This document shows, piece after piece, positions 20,157 to 27,353 of a DNA stretch of 64,000 nt (within the stretch, counting starts at the first letter, position 1; each line of letters starts with the position of its first letter). The notes beneath the pieces are model-generated. The model was not told the DNA's origin, searched no databases, and was given only the letters and a program-made list of their open reading frames with translations. Source of the DNA: Escherichia phage vB_EcoM_NBG2; sequence record NC_054925.1. The stretch is one strand, 5' to 3'. Made by a program: the position numbers and the translations under genes.

Positions 20157-21121
20157 TGTATTCTTTAGAGGAATTTAATAATCAAGCAATAAACGCAGAT
20201 TTCCAACGTAATAATATGTTTAGCTGCGTTTTTGCGACAACTCCATCAACTAAAAGCTCTTCGTTGATAAGTTCAATTAGCAACTTTTCTTATAATAACT
20301 TGGGCCTAAATTCAGATTGGTTAGGATTGACTCAAGGTGATATTAATCAGGGAATTACCACGCTAATTACAGCTGGCACACAAAAACTGATAAGAAAATC
20401 AGGGGTTAGTAAATATCTTATTGGTGCCATGAGTCAACGTACAGTTCAAAGTTTATTGGGCTCATTTACAGTTGGTACATATTTAATTGACTTCTTTAAC
20501 ATGGCATATAACTCATCTGGATTGATGATATATTCCGTAAAAATGCCAGAGAATAGATTATCCTATGAAACTGACTGGAACTATAATTCTCCTAATATTC
20601 GTATAACTGGGAGAGAATTAGACCCTTTGGTTATTTCATTTAGAATGGATTCAGAAGCATGTAATTATCGTGCGATGCAAGACTGGGTTAACGCTGTTCA
20701 AGACCCAGTAACTGGATTACGCGCTTTGCCACAAGATGTCGAGGCAGACATTCAGGTTAATCTTCATGCTCGCAATGGATTGCCTCATACTGCAGTGATG
20801 TTCACCGGATGCATTCCAGTGTCAGTGAGCGCTCCTGAGTTATCATATGATGGAGATAACCAAATAACTACATTTGATGTTACTTTTGCGTATAGAGTCA
20901 TGCAGGCTGGAGCAGTTGATAGACAAGCTGCGCTTGAATGGCTTGAATCTGCTGCTATAAACGGTATTCAAAGCGTTCTCGGAAATAGCGGAGGCGTTAC
21001 TGGACTATCTAATTCGCTTTCACGACTTAGTAGATTAGGAGGAACTGCTGGAAGCATTTCAAACATTAATACTATGACGGGAATTGTCAACTCGCAAAGT
21101 AAAATATTAGGAGCAATATAA
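20156..21121 (+). CDS. 54: baseplate tail-tube initiator gp54
   Basis: 321 aa, synteny. Confidence 0.9.
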   Translation: MYSLEEFNNQAINADFQRNNMFSCVFATTPSTKSSSLISSISNFSYNNLGLNSDWLGLTQGDINQGITTLITAGTQKLIRKSGVSKYLIGAMSQRTVQSLLGSFTVGTYLIDFFNMAYNSSGLMIYSVKMPENRLSYETDWNYNSPNIRITGRELDPLVISFRMDSEACNYRAMQDWVNAVQDPVTGLRALPQDVEADIQVNLHARNGLPHTAVMFTGCIPVSVSAPELSYDGDNQITTFDVTFAYRVMQAGAVDRQAALEWLESAAINGIQSVLGNSGGVTGLSNSLSRLSRLGGTAGSISNINTMTGIVNSQSKILGAI

Positions 21122-21125
21122 CAAT

Positions 21126-21152
21126 GGGGACCTTTCGGTCCCCATGTTTTTA
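21126..21152. terminator. bidirectional terminator between gene 54 (+) and the minus-strand alt block
   Basis: GGGGACC-UUUC-GGUCCCC hairpin with flanking T-runs between convergent ORFs. Confidence 0.8.
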
Positions 21153-21440
21153 TTTACGGAATGAAATAAAAGCAGCAACTGAAGCAACTAAACTGTCTTC
21201 AATATAAACTTCAATTTTTACCGGAGCTTCTGACTCAAATTTGCCTGTTACTACACCTTGGAAAATGCTTTCAGTCTGTTCTGGCTTTGAAAAATTTTCA
21301 GAAGGAAAAATTCCGAACTTTTTATCTGTTCCAAAAATTTTGATAAATTCATCATAAACTGCTTCATTAAAAGCGTTATCAGCAGGAATAACGCCTTCAA
21401 CTACAAGTTCTTGACCTAAAAAGCGCAAAGAAGATTTCAT
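21150..21440 (-). CDS. hypothetical protein
   Basis: 96-aa ORF downstream of an early-promoter cassette. Confidence 0.6.
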   Translation of the reverse strand: MKSSLRFLGQELVVEGVIPADNAFNEAVYDEFIKIFGTDKKFGIFPSENFSKPEQTESIFQGVVTGKFESEAPVKIEVYIEDSLVASVAAFISFRK

Positions 21441-21447
21441 TTTGTGT

Positions 21448-21501
21448 TCCTCATGTTATGTCAGTAAGTTTACTATAACACAACACGAGGGACTTGTAAA
21501 C
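21448..21501 (-). promoter_or_regulatory. early promoter with stem-loop (PeSL-like cassette), copy A
   Basis: Minus strand GTTTAC -35, 18-nt spacer, TATAGT; imperfect inverted repeat spanning the -10; 52 of 54 nt identical to 37403..37456. Confidence 0.65.
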
Positions 21502-23558
21502 TACATTTTGAACTTTTTAGACATTCCGTTAATATTAACCAAAGAAGCCAAGATTTGAGAAACTTCGTTTTCCTCTTCTTTTGATTCTTCTACAAGGAAT
21601 TGATTAAATCCAGTCATTGGACGAACTTCACCAGTTTCCATTAGATGGTCGCCATCATATACCGATTCTTCTAATTGTTCAGAAGGAGGAACGATTGTGC
21701 CTTCGATTAGATACTTGTTATAAGCAGTTTCTTTCATCATGTACGTACTCACTTTATTAATCTTCAGCAAAATTCCACGTGGTAAAATAACTTCAGCTTC
21801 TGATGGAAATCCTGATAAATGACCCGGAACGATAACTTTGATTCGCTCAGCTCCTTTAATTACCATACCTACGCTAGTTTCAGCATCTTCATTCGCATAA
21901 GCAGAGTGACTGCCCATATGCATCAAATCTTCTGCGTCAACTGAACCTTCTCCTTCACCAGAAAATACTGCACTGGAATCATCTAGGGCCATATAGTTTT
22001 TACCATACTCACCGAAGATATTTGGTTTAAGCGATGTGGATACGAAGTTCTTGAAATAGAACATTTTATTTTCAATATTATGACGTAAAGTTTTAAAGGT
22101 AACTTCTTGGCCACGGTAAAGCGTAGTTCCTGGAGGAAGAACTGATCCTTTGGCAAAGGCAGAATCCATTGTCTCGATGTGTTTAATAGCTCGTTCCATA
22201 TATTCTTCACGGGTAGAATCCGGTTTACCTAAAAGGAACGAGTTCATTTCAACATATGAATCTGCACAATAATCTTCAATTACATCAGACTCAGCTTGAG
22301 TTAATCCTTTTGGAGTTACTTCAGTACTTGCATATTCATACGCTTGAGAAGCAGACTCATTAATCAATTTATAAACGCCATTCATGACAAATTGAACAAT
22401 AGCTACCTTTTCATCTGGTGTGGCTTTAGAACCTTTAACTAAATCATTGACAATTTTCTTAATAACATCAAAGCTATTAGAAATATTAATGTCAGCAAGA
22501 TCGCTTAAAATTTTATCAGTTTTATAATCAAAAAATTCTTTATTCTTTAAATATTCTTGAGAACCTTGATATGTTATATCGCTCTGTAACTTGATAGATG
22601 GATCACGTAAACGCGCATGAGCCAATGCAATATGATTTCGGAAGCTTTCTAATTCATAATCACTAGATTTAAAACGGGAAGCACTTCTCATACCACCGAT
22701 AGCTCCTTTGCTGAAGTTTGAACCAACCTGAATAACGCCAGAGTTCATTGGTCCTTCTGCTTTATATACCGGAACTTTAGATTCAAACTCTTGATATTTC
22801 TTAGCAGCGAAGCTATCACCCTGAAGTGAAGCATCGACAGTAGAATATTGAGCTTGTGCTGCTAACCGACGACTAATTTTAGTTTTCTGAATAACAGCTT
22901 GATCCGTGCGCTTATCGTTTTCTAAAGCAATAGAAGCAGCAACAGCAACAGCTTTAGGAACAGCATTACCTGTTTTAACATCTATATAAACATCACCAAC
23001 CTTTGATTCAACTTTTGTGAATAACTCAGTTGAAATAGGAGGTACACCTGGAATGTCTTCTAAATTAGCATTTTTACGGTAAACCATAATATATGCGTAC
23101 TTTTTATCGTAATCCCAGATTTCCTTTAAAAGAACATATCGACCTGCTCCTTTAGTACGTACTAAACGGTCGGCAATAACTTGCATTTGACGAGCTGCAC
23201 CATTTGTTTTACTCTTTAGTACGCGGAATAAGCATGCGTCAATTTTGTATTGTTTCATTGTCTGAAGAGCAGTATCAAAAACCGCATTAATGACACCAAT
23301 TGGATTTCCACCCAAGTTTTTAAGTTTAACTAATGATAGTTTTTCATTGACCCCTATCATTACGATATGCATCATTTTATCGCCTGGCTTAACGTTTTTA
23401 TTTGTATCACCGCCAGAGGTGTATGTACAAAATCTAAATCCAGGAAGCACGCTTTCTTCACCGGCTTGAATAGCAAAAATTTGAGGTATTTTATGCTTAG
23501 GATTTAAGTTAACAACCGGCGCCGAAGCGCCGTCAAATAATTCTGTAATAAGTTCCAT
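21501..23558 (-). CDS. Alt-like ADP-ribosyltransferase paralog (685 aa)
   Basis: N-terminus MELITELFD...; R-S-E signature (TLYRGQ, FVSTSL, EAEVILPRG); tandem to a second Alt-like gene. Confidence 0.85.
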   Translation of the reverse strand: MELITELFDGASAPVVNLNPKHKIPQIFAIQAGEESVLPGFRFCTYTSGGDTNKNVKPGDKMMHIVMIGVNEKLSLVKLKNLGGNPIGVINAVFDTALQTMKQYKIDACLFRVLKSKTNGAARQMQVIADRLVRTKGAGRYVLLKEIWDYDKKYAYIMVYRKNANLEDIPGVPPISTELFTKVESKVGDVYIDVKTGNAVPKAVAVAASIALENDKRTDQAVIQKTKISRRLAAQAQYSTVDASLQGDSFAAKKYQEFESKVPVYKAEGPMNSGVIQVGSNFSKGAIGGMRSASRFKSSDYELESFRNHIALAHARLRDPSIKLQSDITYQGSQEYLKNKEFFDYKTDKILSDLADINISNSFDVIKKIVNDLVKGSKATPDEKVAIVQFVMNGVYKLINESASQAYEYASTEVTPKGLTQAESDVIEDYCADSYVEMNSFLLGKPDSTREEYMERAIKHIETMDSAFAKGSVLPPGTTLYRGQEVTFKTLRHNIENKMFYFKNFVSTSLKPNIFGEYGKNYMALDDSSAVFSGEGEGSVDAEDLMHMGSHSAYANEDAETSVGMVIKGAERIKVIVPGHLSGFPSEAEVILPRGILLKINKVSTYMMKETAYNKYLIEGTIVPPSEQLEESVYDGDHLMETGEVRPMTGFNQFLVEESKEEENEVSQILASLVNINGMSKKFKM

Positions 23559-23561
23559 GAT

Positions 23562-25658
23562 TTATCCTTGAACGAACTTGTAAGGCATGTTTGTAATATC
23601 TATGCAAGACGCAATAATTCCAAGAGATGATTCTACTTTCTGTTTAACATTTGATGAAACAAATGATGCAAAGTCAACTCTGTCTTCTATTTCAATATCA
23701 TCTGTCATTGCAACTACTTCACCCGTTTCCATTAGACGGTCACCGTCATAAATTACTGATTCGGTGAGTTCTTCCGTAGTCATAACTTCAGCTTGAATGA
23801 GTTTTGTATTATTAGATGTTGTTCCGTCATTATTAGAAGCATCAGTTATTTTATTAACTTTGACCATCAATCCGCGCGGTAGAATAACTTCAGCTTCAGT
23901 TGCTATTCCGAGACTTCCTGGATATACAACATTAACTTTATGAGCTCCATCAATTGCCCATCCTATTTGAACTTTAACGTATTCAGGATTTTCTTTATAC
24001 GCTCTTATTTCGTTTGGATTAATAGTTATTCCTTCTTCATTTTTATCAACTGTTAATTCATTACGAGCTTCTGGTTCTAAAAGACCGATACCAGCATGTG
24101 TAATTCCAAAACGTCCAAAAATGATAGGAGTTAAAGAAGTAGATACAAAATTTCTGAAATAGAACACTTTATTTTTAACTAGCGCTTCGTATATAGGAGC
24201 AGTCATACTTTGAGCACGATAAACTGTAATGCCCTCTGGTATACGGTCACCATTTTCAAAAGCTGAATCTAAATTATTTATCGCAGATTCAATTTCTTTT
24301 TCACTCATTACATCATATCGTTCTGGATTGTAGCGGCCTAAAAGAAGATTATTGATGTCAGTATATCCTGATCCACAATACTCTCTAATGCCGCGCTTTT
24401 GCGATGGAGTATATTTAGAACCATCACGTGCAATGGTAATATCAATCATTGGACCTGCACCAATTCCAGAAAAGCTATAAATCATTCGTTTGAGGAATTT
24501 AGTTTTTGCTGCGTTCCAGGAATTTTTAGTTATTTCTTCCCAGACTTCATCTGGCTGCCCTTTACGAGTTTTATTATGTTTATCAAGCCAATTATCTTTA
24601 TATTCTTCAAATAATTGATTAACAGCTGCTGCGTATTTCTCTAAACATTTTATTGAAGTAGTTGGTTCATTTTTAATCGCATTAAGAATTACATCTTTAA
24701 TTTTTTCAGAAACTTCATTAACCTCACTTTTTGAAAAGAATTTATAGTCATAGTGAAGTTCATCTGCGGTTCCTTCGGCAATAATTTTTGCTGCCTTAGT
24801 TTTAGAAGCTAATGAATTAATTCCAAGCTTCATTTCTTCTGCTTCGGGAATTAAAGGAGCTGTAGCAGGTTTATTGAAATTAGCTGCGGTAGATTCATAT
24901 TTCTGGAATAATTCGCTTTCAAATCTAGAAGATTCTAATGACTGACTTTGTGCAATTGCTCTACGGGAAATTTTAACTTTAACGATAACAGCTTGGTCAG
25001 AGCGTTTATCATTTTCTTGTGCAATAGATGCTGCAATTGCCTCATTTTTAGTTACTTGAGCTCCAGTATCTTTATTGATATAAACATCGCCGACTTTCGA
25101 TTCAACCTTAGTAAAGAGCTCGGTACTAATTTCAGGAACTCCTGGAATGTCTTCTAGTGATACATTTTTGCGATGTATAAGAATATATGCGTACTTTTTA
25201 TCATAATCCCAGAGTTCCTTAAGAAGGACGTATCTGCCACCTGAACGACTACGGATAAGTCTATCAGCAATAACTTGAATTTGTCGAGCTTGACCAGCAG
25301 TTTTAGACTTAAGAATACGAAGCATACAGGCATCAATTTTATACTGACGCATCGTCTGCATTGCAACAGTAAAAACTGAATTGATGTAATTAATTGGGCT
25401 TGGACCGAGACCTTTTAATTTAGCAATTGAACCTTTAGCAGTTAATGTAAAAGGAACAATATGCATCATTTTATCGCCCATTTTTAAATCGCGATTAGTA
25501 TCACCTCCAGATGTATAGGTACATAAACGAAAGCCTGGTTGTTCAATTGCATCATCAACATGAACTGAAAAAATTTGTGGTATTTTCTTCTTTGGATTTA
25601 AGTTTGTAATCGGAAGAGTAGTATCTTCGTCAAATAATTCTGTAATGAGTTCCATCAT
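23562..25658 (-). CDS. alt: Alt ADP-ribosyltransferase (698 aa), ligase-proximal copy
   Basis: Same architecture and R-S-E motifs (VYRAQ, FVSTSL, EAEVILPRG); position next to gene 30 as for T4 alt; which copy is orthologous to T4 alt is uncertain. Confidence 0.8.
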   Translation of the reverse strand: MMELITELFDEDTTLPITNLNPKKKIPQIFSVHVDDAIEQPGFRLCTYTSGGDTNRDLKMGDKMMHIVPFTLTAKGSIAKLKGLGPSPINYINSVFTVAMQTMRQYKIDACMLRILKSKTAGQARQIQVIADRLIRSRSGGRYVLLKELWDYDKKYAYILIHRKNVSLEDIPGVPEISTELFTKVESKVGDVYINKDTGAQVTKNEAIAASIAQENDKRSDQAVIVKVKISRRAIAQSQSLESSRFESELFQKYESTAANFNKPATAPLIPEAEEMKLGINSLASKTKAAKIIAEGTADELHYDYKFFSKSEVNEVSEKIKDVILNAIKNEPTTSIKCLEKYAAAVNQLFEEYKDNWLDKHNKTRKGQPDEVWEEITKNSWNAAKTKFLKRMIYSFSGIGAGPMIDITIARDGSKYTPSQKRGIREYCGSGYTDINNLLLGRYNPERYDVMSEKEIESAINNLDSAFENGDRIPEGITVYRAQSMTAPIYEALVKNKVFYFRNFVSTSLTPIIFGRFGITHAGIGLLEPEARNELTVDKNEEGITINPNEIRAYKENPEYVKVQIGWAIDGAHKVNVVYPGSLGIATEAEVILPRGLMVKVNKITDASNNDGTTSNNTKLIQAEVMTTEELTESVIYDGDRLMETGEVVAMTDDIEIEDRVDFASFVSSNVKQKVESSLGIIASCIDITNMPYKFVQG

Positions 25659-25678
25659 ATCCTCTCTAGTGTTTATTC

Positions 25679-25686
25679 TATTTATA
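25679..25686 (-). promoter_or_regulatory. late promoter (TATAAATA, minus) for alt
   Basis: Plus tatttata 21 nt upstream of the alt ATG; Alt is a virion-packaged protein. Confidence 0.6.
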
Positions 25687-25691
25687 AAATT

Positions 25692-25709
25692 AAAGGCCCG
25701 AAGGCCTTT
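25692..25709 (-). terminator. stable hairpin / terminator between the ligase operon and alt
   Basis: AAAGGCC-UUCG-GGCCUUU on the minus transcript, overlapping the stop of ORF 25708..25896. Confidence 0.55.
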
Positions 25710-25896
25710 AATAATCTAGTGGTAAGAGAGTACGATATATTTCAAACTTTGGACCTTTTTCGTAGGCATCAAATGTTTCTGTAAATTTATTATAAGCATA
25801 TGCATCTACAAATTCGAGAATGACTTGTGATACCGAAGTAGAAACATCTCCACCTTCTTTTTGAGCAACGACAATTGTTTCTAAGTAAGCTTTCAT
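25708..25896 (-). CDS. hypothetical protein
   Basis: 62-aa ORF, ATGA overlap with the ligase stop. Confidence 0.5.
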   Translation of the reverse strand: MKAYLETIVVAQKEGGDVSTSVSQVILEFVDAYAYNKFTETFDAYEKGPKFEIYRTLLPLDY

Positions 25897-27353
25897 AAAC
25901 CAGTTACCTCATGAAAATCACCAAATACATCCTCGAATGTATTAGCTTTAGTTTTATCTTCACGTAAACGAATCGCAATTGGAAGAAATAATTTAACGTA
26001 ATCAGTGCGACCATCAGATTTTAACCAACCATTGCATTCGCACTCTAGAATTTTTCCAATATAATAATTTTGGTTTTCCATAATGCGAGTACGGTCAAGT
26101 TCATGTGATTTTACACCGGCTTTATCTTTTAAGCCTGAACCAGCATTTACTTTAATTTTTCCACACTCTGATTCAAGAATAAATCCACCCGCTTTAGTAG
26201 GGTCTTTACGGTGAGGATAAATTCCTACAATTTTTAAATCAACATCAATTACTTCTTTAAATTTATAGAGATTTTTTGAACGAGCATTTTCCCACAATCC
26301 ATCGGTATTTTTGAGAATAATACCTTCAAGACCTTGGTCAATATATTTTTTATAAATTACCTTAGCTTCATCTAGGTTATTTACTACTTGGTTTTCAATT
26401 AAAATTACTTTATCATATCCTGATGTCATTTGTTCTAGTTTAGAAAAACGTACATCATATTTTAAACGAAACGCCGGAAGACCGTATATTTCTACCAACG
26501 GAACATAATCCCAGACCTGAAACTTCATACATTGGGCTTCTTTTTCTGAAATAGTTCCCTTTAAAGATTTATTAGCGATTCCATTAGAAGCAGTACGAGA
26601 TTCAGCTACTTCTGTGAAGTCTTTAGCTTTGCTAATTTCAGGAGTGTCAAAAAGAAAATCTAGGCCTTCTGGTTCCTTTTTAACTTGCTCATGGTATACC
26701 AATTCGCCATCAATTAACACACCTTCTGGATGAATCTGGCGGGCTTCAGCGGTCATTTTGATTAACTCTTCCTTAAGAAGATCTAATCCTAGATATTCAT
26801 TACCAGCTCGTGATAAAAGACGAACATCATCTAATTCATCTCCTCTGACTTCAGCAAAACACCGGGCTCCATCTGCTTTTAACTGCGCAAAAGCTGGAAA
26901 TTTGATATTCTTACTAATGCCTTTTTCATCATAAGAACTTGCAAGCATTTGAGGTTGTTCAGGAATTAAACCTGGCCAAACTTTGTTTGCAATAGATACT
27001 GAAGCACCGCATTCAAGGTCTCGCATCATAACTCGGCGCAAAACTTCAACATCATCCTTTTTACCATCGGTGATATATCCAGTTAATTCCTCAATTGCTG
27101 CATTTCCAGTCAATTTCCGAGTAGCTAACGTAAATTCAATAAAGTCAAGCATATCGGTAATGGTCAGCATTCCAAAACTCTGGGTAGCAATACCAGGCTT
27201 AGGCCATTTCTTGATATAATACTGTAACCCACGAGAATAAGTCAGACGATATACTCGTTTAAGCAATTCATTATCTTTATTCTTTTCAAGAATTGCTTGC
27301 TTCTGCTTAGTTGATCCAATAGATGCTATTTCATTCAGAATTTTAAGAATCAT
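25893..27353 (-). CDS. 30: ATP-dependent DNA ligase gp30
   Basis: 486 aa; adenylation motif KADGAR; sequence recognised as T4 DNA ligase. Confidence 0.97.
   Translation of the reverse strand: MILKILNEIASIGSTKQKQAILEKNKDNELLKRVYRLTYSRGLQYYIKKWPKPGIATQSFGMLTITDMLDFIEFTLATRKLTGNAAIEELTGYITDGKKDDVEVLRRVMMRDLECGASVSIANKVWPGLIPEQPQMLASSYDEKGISKNIKFPAFAQLKADGARCFAEVRGDELDDVRLLSRAGNEYLGLDLLKEELIKMTAEARQIHPEGVLIDGELVYHEQVKKEPEGLDFLFDTPEISKAKDFTEVAESRTASNGIANKSLKGTISEKEAQCMKFQVWDYVPLVEIYGLPAFRLKYDVRFSKLEQMTSGYDKVILIENQVVNNLDEAKVIYKKYIDQGLEGIILKNTDGLWENARSKNLYKFKEVIDVDLKIVGIYPHRKDPTKAGGFILESECGKIKVNAGSGLKDKAGVKSHELDRTRIMENQNYYIGKILECECNGWLKSDGRTDYVKLFLPIAIRLREDKTKANTFEDVFGDFHEVTGL

Follow-up and report, generated by a model that had tools for sequence, protein, structure and literature searches.

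The window analysed here is a 64,000-nucleotide (nt) stretch of Escherichia phage vB_EcoM_NBG2 (NC_054925.1), a Tequatrovirus, and its alt locus holds two adjacent minus-strand genes for proteins of the Alt ADP-ribosyltransferase (ART) family. The first, which we call gene A (21501-23558), encodes 685 residues and was recognized as a second Alt paralogue from the list of open reading frames (ORFs), BLASTP, Pfam and phrog_802. The second, gene B (23562-25655, or to 25658 from its first ATG), encodes 697 or 698 residues and is the positional orthologue of T4 alt. An earlier reading of the letters alone (hereafter the sequence-only reading) had placed two minus-strand ORFs of 685 and 698 residues at 21501-25658, and the ORF list confirms these coordinates. 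The surroundings match those of alt in T4, with genes 29, 48 and 54 on the plus strand and alt.-3, alt.1 and the DNA ligase gene 30 on the minus strand. Both A and B thus have the location characteristic of the Alt family, with gene 30/alt.1 on one side, alt.-3/gene 54 on the other and the baseplate genes on the opposite strand.

The two proteins are 41% identical across their full length, and the BLASTP E value of 1e-162 removes chance as a source of this likeness. Both pass the Pfam threshold for PF03496 ADPrib_exo_Tox (2.1e-20 for A, 1.6e-37 for B), and both are matched end to end by phrog_802, “Alt-like RNA polymerase ADP-ribosyltransferase”. PF26846 (Tevenvirinae_ADPRT) is precomputed on homologues 96-98% identical to the window proteins; it was not reported for A or B in the Pfam scan that did report PF03496, and no NCBIfam model matched either protein. 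Small early ARTs of the ModA/ModB type were ruled out by size, module content and locus: those enzymes have ~200 residues, are encoded at the mod locus and lack the N-terminal packaging module, whereas A and B have 685 and 697 residues, possess the N-terminal module of Alt and are found at the alt locus. As judged from their sequences, A and B are full-length Alt-family ADP-ribosyltransferases with intact motifs.

The longest reading frame of B begins MMELITELFD (698 residues), and its second ATG gives MELITELFD and a protein of 697 residues, the form used here for all residue numbers of B. The same ATGATG start is found in T4, whose alt gene is annotated from the second ATG. The statement in the sequence-only reading that both proteins begin MELITELFD therefore holds for A and for B from its second ATG, but not for the longest B frame. 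That reading had also credited both proteins with a complete R-S-E catalytic signature, and here it was right. In A the motifs are TLYRGQ (R482; 22113-22115), FVSTSL (S507-S509; 22032-22040) and EAEVILPRG (E587/E589; 21792-21800); in B they are TVYRAQ (R480; 24216-24218), FVSTSL (S505-S507; 24135-24143) and EAEVILPRG (E587/E589; 23889-23897), all on the minus strand. The catalytic Arg, the STS and the ExE are invariant across 15 diverged family members, and neither protein lacks the catalytic Arg or Glu. The STS of B was located by reading the motif and from this family alignment. In phmmer alignments, R480 falls on the catalytic Arg of CDTa and iota toxin, and the ExE of B on that of CDTa. 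Further, E589, the second Glu of the B ExE, is the counterpart of the T4 Alt residue published as E577, whose Ala mutant is catalytically inactive (PMC11404850); the one-residue offset in the published numbering results from the double ATG start.

AlphaFold models give A and B a common three-domain layout, with a C3/Vis-like catalytic fold last. The predicted fold matches Vis, C3, CDTa and VIP2, the model of A matching Vis and C3. In A, an N-terminal alpha/beta domain of residues 7-235 (22854-23540, minus strand), which is the conserved Tevenvirinae_ADPRT module and is modelled with a predicted local distance difference test score (pLDDT) of 70-88, precedes a helical central region of residues 236-470 (22149-22853) and the ART catalytic core of residues 471-631 (21666-22148), which ends at a predicted site for the prohead protease gp21, LEE-631. 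The N-terminal module is 68% (A) and 99.6% (B) identical to residues 1-235 of T4 Alt, and it is a candidate packaging or core-binding module. The helical centre of A is a candidate substrate-selection module.

The likeness between A and B is far from uniform. Over the first 230 residues the measured identity is 68.7%, higher than the ~60% first estimated. It falls to 21% over residues 236-410, in agreement with the central divergence that had been claimed, and recovers in part beyond the centre, to 34% (catalytic domain) and 43% (C-terminal tail). Besides the centre, the most divergent stretch is that between STS and ExE (residues 510-560, 19%), within which residues 515-536 of the B model have a pLDDT below 50. 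In C3-like enzymes this stretch carries substrate-contacting loops, and Alt proteins have ~30-40 extra, highly variable residues there compared with the toxins, with iota toxin Ia as the reference for toxin spacing. Taken in sequence order, the helices of the two centres follow nearly superimposable patterns, so that the centres look like fast-diverging homologues rather than unrelated inserts. An exhaustive phmmer search with the A centre (residues 236-415) against 1.84 billion representatives returned one marginal match only (E = 9.5e-4), which leaves this region with no recognizable sequence relatives outside the family.

In T4, about 40 copies of Alt reside in each head and are injected with the DNA. 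The protein is described as a prohead core protein (PMC9026906, PMC11404850). It is cut by gp21 after ITE-6 and LTE-619 to yield a 68.2-kDa mature protein (PMC5694885, PMC9026906), the sites having been mapped by mass spectrometry (PMC5694885). Predicted gp21 sites are present at both ends of both window proteins: MELITE before L and EELTE before SVIYDGD in B, and MELITE before L and SEQLEE before SVYDGD in A. The N-terminal propeptide MELITE, with its predicted cut after E6, occupies 25638-25655 in B, where the site is identical to ITE-6 of T4 Alt, and 23541-23558 in A (both minus strand). The putative C-terminal propeptide of B comprises 65 residues plus the stop codon (23562-23759, minus strand), has low pLDDT and follows a predicted cut after LTE-632 in the same context as T4 LTE-619. 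That of A comprises 54 residues plus the stop codon (21501-21665, minus strand), has pLDDT below 50 and contains a conserved SV(I)YDGDxLMETGE block. All 15 aligned sequences keep both P1 Glu residues (E6 and E631) and, after the C-terminal site, the block Y-D-G-D..E.GE unchanged, and the predicted propeptides are the sole long low-confidence termini of the two models. Calculation of the mature masses gives 70.1 kDa for B and 69.1 kDa for A; for T4 Alt it returns 68.2 kDa, as published. The conserved sites lend good support, at the level of sequence, to the packaging and processing of A, and the earlier proposal that both proteins are packaged still appears probable now that ITE-6 and a C-terminal LxE site have been found in each.

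A T4-type late promoter motif, TATAAATA, is located at 25679-25686 on the minus strand, 21 nt upstream of the first ATG of B; a promoter function is presumed from the T4 consensus. It is the only copy on the minus strand between 14.9 kb and 31.5 kb. After the alt.1 stop codon the order is a stem-loop, TATAAATA, a Shine-Dalgarno sequence and the start of B. The ATG of A stands 3 nt past the B stop codon and in the same frame (TAA ATC ATG; CAAGGATAAATCATG), with an AAGGA Shine-Dalgarno sequence inside the end of B. There is no TATAAATA between B and A, and the promoter scan found no separate promoter for A. Given this spacing, the Shine-Dalgarno sequence and the lack of an intergenic promoter, A is most likely co-transcribed with B from the single putative late promoter. 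Because the genes are in frame, read-through of the B stop codon to give a B-A fusion was also considered; the stop codon is TAA, and no evidence supporting a fusion was found. The 3-nt in-frame spacer (23556-23564) also occurs between the alt genes of T2, T6, PP01, the divergent pair of contig L009 and all three genes of QL01, and between T4 alt and alt.-1 (L001 5451-5455), the loci including L002, L009, L010, L011 and L012. In SP18 the spacer is 9 nt and likewise in frame. The cause of the 3-nt spacing is likely to be a duplication junction or translational coupling.

T4 Alt (NP_049811) shows 70% identity with B, against 42% with A, which identifies B as the orthologue of alt. It is like B in position, gp21 sites, R-S-E motifs and late promoter/ATGATG context, but unlike it in the central cassette (~32%) and the ART domain (66%). 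Whether T4 itself possesses a second full-length copy had been left open by the sequence-only reading; it has none, and only a remnant persists as alt.-1/alt.-2. The T4 gene order is alt, alt.-1, alt.-2, alt.-3. T4 alt.-1 (NP_049810) is 95% identical to residues 1-56 of A and alt.-2 (NP_049809) 98% identical to residues 62-116. In a base-level alignment with intact A, T4 lacks one nucleotide of an A-run (coding position 160) and has also lost a segment of 1,699 nt. This segment corresponds to 21521-23219 of the window (minus strand), bounded by the imperfect 9-bp direct repeats CTAAAGAGT and CTAAAAAGT. The alt.-1/alt.-2 region is thus the counterpart of the first 116 codons of A, but frameshifted, and deleted between CTAAAGAGT and CTAAAAAGT. 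By this alignment, what remains in T4 is the stump of a second alt gene that was once full-length, and the note in the T4 record, “a duplication of the first part of gene alt”, understates the remnant.

The locus of the window is an ordinary one for its genus. Many Tequatrovirus genomes, LYE-01, BP32 and PP01 among them, match the region 21000-26000 at 97-98% identity, and both the 685-residue and the 697-residue proteins are present in T2 and T6. Copies of A at least 80% identical, mostly 95-99%, occur in ~401 phage records, and of the 543 records that match the 5-kb region, 385 do so over at least 80% of it. The T4-type junction appears as one contiguous match in 91 of 498 records, among them T4 isolates, RB55 and RB59. 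These matches indicate that the two-gene state is the norm, usual in T2, T6 and ~80% of relatives, and that T4 is the exception. The second “Alt-like RNA polymerase ADP-ribosyltransferase” of T6 (YP_010067344), T2 (BBF63359), PP01 (YP_010073571), RB6, Shfl2 and others is the orthologue of A, with 685 residues, 97-99% identity and the 3-nt spacing; between the A of the window and the T2/T6/PP01 proteins there is no difference of substance. Many records annotate two Alt-type genes here (in RefSeq, “Alt-like RNA polymerase ADP-ribosyltransferase (x2)”), and others list hypothetical proteins. The pair is therefore already known: it is annotated in hundreds of records, and duplications of alt, including a full-length one in 44RR, were noted in 2006 (Nolan et al. 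2006; PMC1524935). The novelty that the sequence-only reading had implied does not survive the comparison of copy number with other T-even phages.

Both genes have the marks of selective maintenance. We compared the window copies with those of PP01, T2, T6 and two IMG/VR loci, leaving out of the B figure L004, which has a T4-like cassette at the first position. Within the genus, the ratio of nonsynonymous to synonymous substitution rates (dN/dS, or omega) is 0.03-0.05 for A and 0.02-0.07 for B, and omega in the ART domain is 0.03-0.06. Against the divergent L009 pair, dN/dS is 0.14 for A and 0.24 for B. No internal stop codons were found in seven orthologues of A or of B. The view that neither copy is decaying is borne out by these values. 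Other lineages have nonetheless inactivated A. Among metagenomic T4-like contigs, at least 16 have an 8-bp tandem duplication (AGTTTGAA) at coding position 769 of A, and two have a 1-nt deletion at coding position 459; the first alt gene is intact in all of them. Together with the T4 deletion, these lesions show that A has been lost independently at least three times in nature. Strong conservation where present, coupled with repeated loss, is typical of accessory host-interaction genes.

We consider it likely that this locus is a late operon, consisting of the late promoter, B and A, that encodes two functional paralogous mono-ADP-ribosyltransferases of the Alt family, with B an allele of T4 alt and A an ancestral second gene that has been largely deleted in T4. 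From the biology of T4 Alt and the conserved sequence features we infer a shared course of expression timing, packaging, cleavage, injection and arginine modification. Both proteins would be made late, and their common N-terminal module would bring them into the prohead core. There, gp21 would remove the N-terminal propeptide of each at ITE-6 and the C-terminal one at LTE-632 (B) or LEE-631 (A), leaving mature enzymes of ~70 and ~69 kDa, respectively. Ejected with the DNA, the enzymes would use host NAD+ to ADP-ribosylate arginines of host proteins, as befits an ExE-type site, in the first seconds of infection. Because A and B differ mainly in the helical centre and in the STS-ExE loop, their host targets are most likely different, as the sequence-only reading had suggested; of the explanations considered, its view of two intact enzymes, probably both injected, is the best supported. 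Modification of E. coli RNA polymerase alpha (Arg265) and of other host proteins is a property known for T4 Alt alone (PMC5512222, PMC9503650).

Several points weigh against this interpretation. Divergence is by itself no proof of different substrates. A sequence search of the PDB with A gave no match at E <= 0.01, so that its motifs are assigned from Pfam, from alignment with B and T4 Alt, and from the fold of the model. Our search of the literature found no study of the second gene's product, whether of its expression, packaging, cleavage, injection or activity. Finally, T4 and ~91 other records do without A, and two more independent frameshift alleles exist; A must therefore be dispensable in at least some hosts.

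The alternative that fares best, although we regard it as unlikely, is that A is a redundant or dosage copy, packaged and active on the same targets as Alt (e.g. Arg265 of RNA polymerase alpha) and serving to increase the injected activity. The resemblance of A and B in architecture, catalytic motifs and locus would fit such a role, as would the loss of A from T4 and other phages with no obvious consequence on laboratory hosts. However, A and B share only 34% identity in the catalytic domain and 21% in the centre, yet in ~400 genomes strong purifying selection maintains A as a lineage of its own that hardly varies. Further, a pure dosage copy should have been homogenized by gene conversion, yet the paralogues are still distinct in the divergent L009 pair.

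It is quite improbable that A goes unpackaged and acts late inside the producing cell, given that the MELITE propeptide and both gp21 sites are conserved, with E6 and E631 invariant, and that A is predicted to be co-transcribed with a packaged paralogue from a late promoter motif. We give still less weight to the idea that A serves mainly in the structure or core of the head, or helps to package B as a chaperone, its enzymatic activity being irrelevant or lost. The description of Alt as a prohead core protein and the status of the N-terminal module as the best-conserved part of the protein are in keeping with this notion, but the invariance of the catalytic Arg, STS and ExE and the low omega of the ART domain are not, and T4 heads assemble without A. 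That the A of the window is a decaying pseudogene, as T4 and the two other inactivated lineages might suggest, is scarcely credible and is refuted by its complete ORF, its full set of motifs, an omega of ~0.03-0.05 and intact copies 97-99.7% identical in hundreds of genomes.

Knowledge of phage ADP-ribosylation of the host comes almost entirely from T4, which is usually credited with three enzymes, Alt, ModA and ModB. Most close relatives of T4, including T2 and T6, carry a fourth ART that is intact, conserved and probably injected, and T2 and T6 are used beside T4 in nearly every screen of defence systems. Studies of targets have passed over the second enzyme because A is absent from T4; what it modifies is a well-defined and cheap question for laboratories that work on Alt. 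A bolder proposal, which we advance only tentatively and think rather doubtful in its entirety, is that A is a fourth T-even ART, overlooked owing to its deletion in T4, and that after injection it would modify some host factor left alone by Alt, perhaps a defence protein. The repeated loss of A might then reflect a cost in some hosts, e.g. those with a defence system that senses A. Were this so, the presence or absence of A would contribute to the differences in sensitivity of T2/T6 and T4 to hosts or defence systems.

The first gene is itself variable. B and T4 Alt are all but the same over their N-terminal 235 residues (99.6% identity) but share only 32% identity in the centre and 66% in the ART domain. 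The DNA similarity between B and T4 alt ends abruptly near window position 24849, and none is detectable in the central cassette; the first gene, too, thus exists as alleles with swapped centre and ART cassettes. Searches of the phage collection turned up the B-type cassette in ~336 records, against ~175 for the T4-type. Intact A occurs beside both types, with the B-type in the window and with the T4-type in L004, G9062 and a15. A single long query was used to examine the linkage of the T4-type deletion to the T4-type cassette, but the classes were not resolved at the 80% coverage threshold. In record OR757454.1 (phage BYEP02), the match containing the T4-type deletion junction (query 1-879 only) stops before the T4-type central cassette; the deletion allele seems to have recombined onto a different alt allele at the first position. 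Three proteins (P0004, P0006 and P0007) combine B-type N-terminal 235 residues (86-98%) with an A-type centre, ART domain and tail (97%). P0007 (locus L008 5001-7061) directly follows alt.1, at the very end of a 7-kb short-read Logan contig. These proteins might be real single-gene B/A fusion deletion alleles, or assembly chimeras across the similar N-terminal regions.

Tandem arrays between gene 30 and alt.-3/gene 54 are found in other Tevenvirinae as well: alta/altb in SP18, three genes in QL01, ORF187c/188c in 44RR and ORF183c in RB49. These differ from the window pair in copy number (1-3) and lineage, and are 31-48% identical to A. In the divergent T4-like contig L009, the pair is followed by an alt.-3 homologue. 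More distantly, the C3-like and binary-toxin ARTs (Vis, C3bot, iota Ia, CDTa, VIP2) have the catalytic fold and the R-S-E site in common with A and B, but the gp21 propeptides are absent from them, as are the N-terminal and helical central modules of the Tevenvirinae proteins. T4 Alt figures in reviews as the prototype of the injected ARTs within the Alt/VIP2 R-S-E clade, and conserved Alt contexts are noted there for T4-like phages (PMC5512222, PMC9503650). The T-even internal proteins Ip1, Ip2 and Ip3 are, like T4 Alt, packaged in the head, processed by gp21 via an N-terminal propeptide and injected, and they vary among T2, T4 and T6; Ip1 and Ip2 inhibit restriction systems (PMC12373910, PMC9026906). 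However, they are small, non-enzymatic, unrelated to Alt in sequence and encoded at other loci.

The genes and signals that border the pair complete the picture of the locus. Upstream, a 62-residue alt.1 homologue (25708-25896, minus strand; PF24647 Phage_blade, 2.2e-29) has the same position as T4 alt.1. Some GenBank records call it a “siderophore-interacting protein”, which looks like a propagated misannotation. The stem-loop AAAGGCC-TTCG-GGCCTTT (25692-25709, minus strand), read from the sequence, lies over the alt.1 stop codon and is possibly a terminator or an RNA-stability element; it has no T-run and was not called by the terminator scan. Downstream, right after the A stop codon and before alt.-3, a match to the sigma-70/T4-early-like promoter consensus (TTTACA-17-TATAGT; 10/12, with TG) is found at 21472-21500 on the minus strand; the endpoint of the T4 deletion is only ~20 nt upstream of this match. 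The alt.-3 homologue (21150-21440, minus strand; 96 residues, DUF5498) is 100% identical to T4 Alt.-3; in T4, mutants with a C-terminally extended Alt.-3 evade the CmdTAC defence system (PMC11618068). The terminator scan called a bidirectional terminator hairpin at 21124-21145, between alt.-3 and gene 54.

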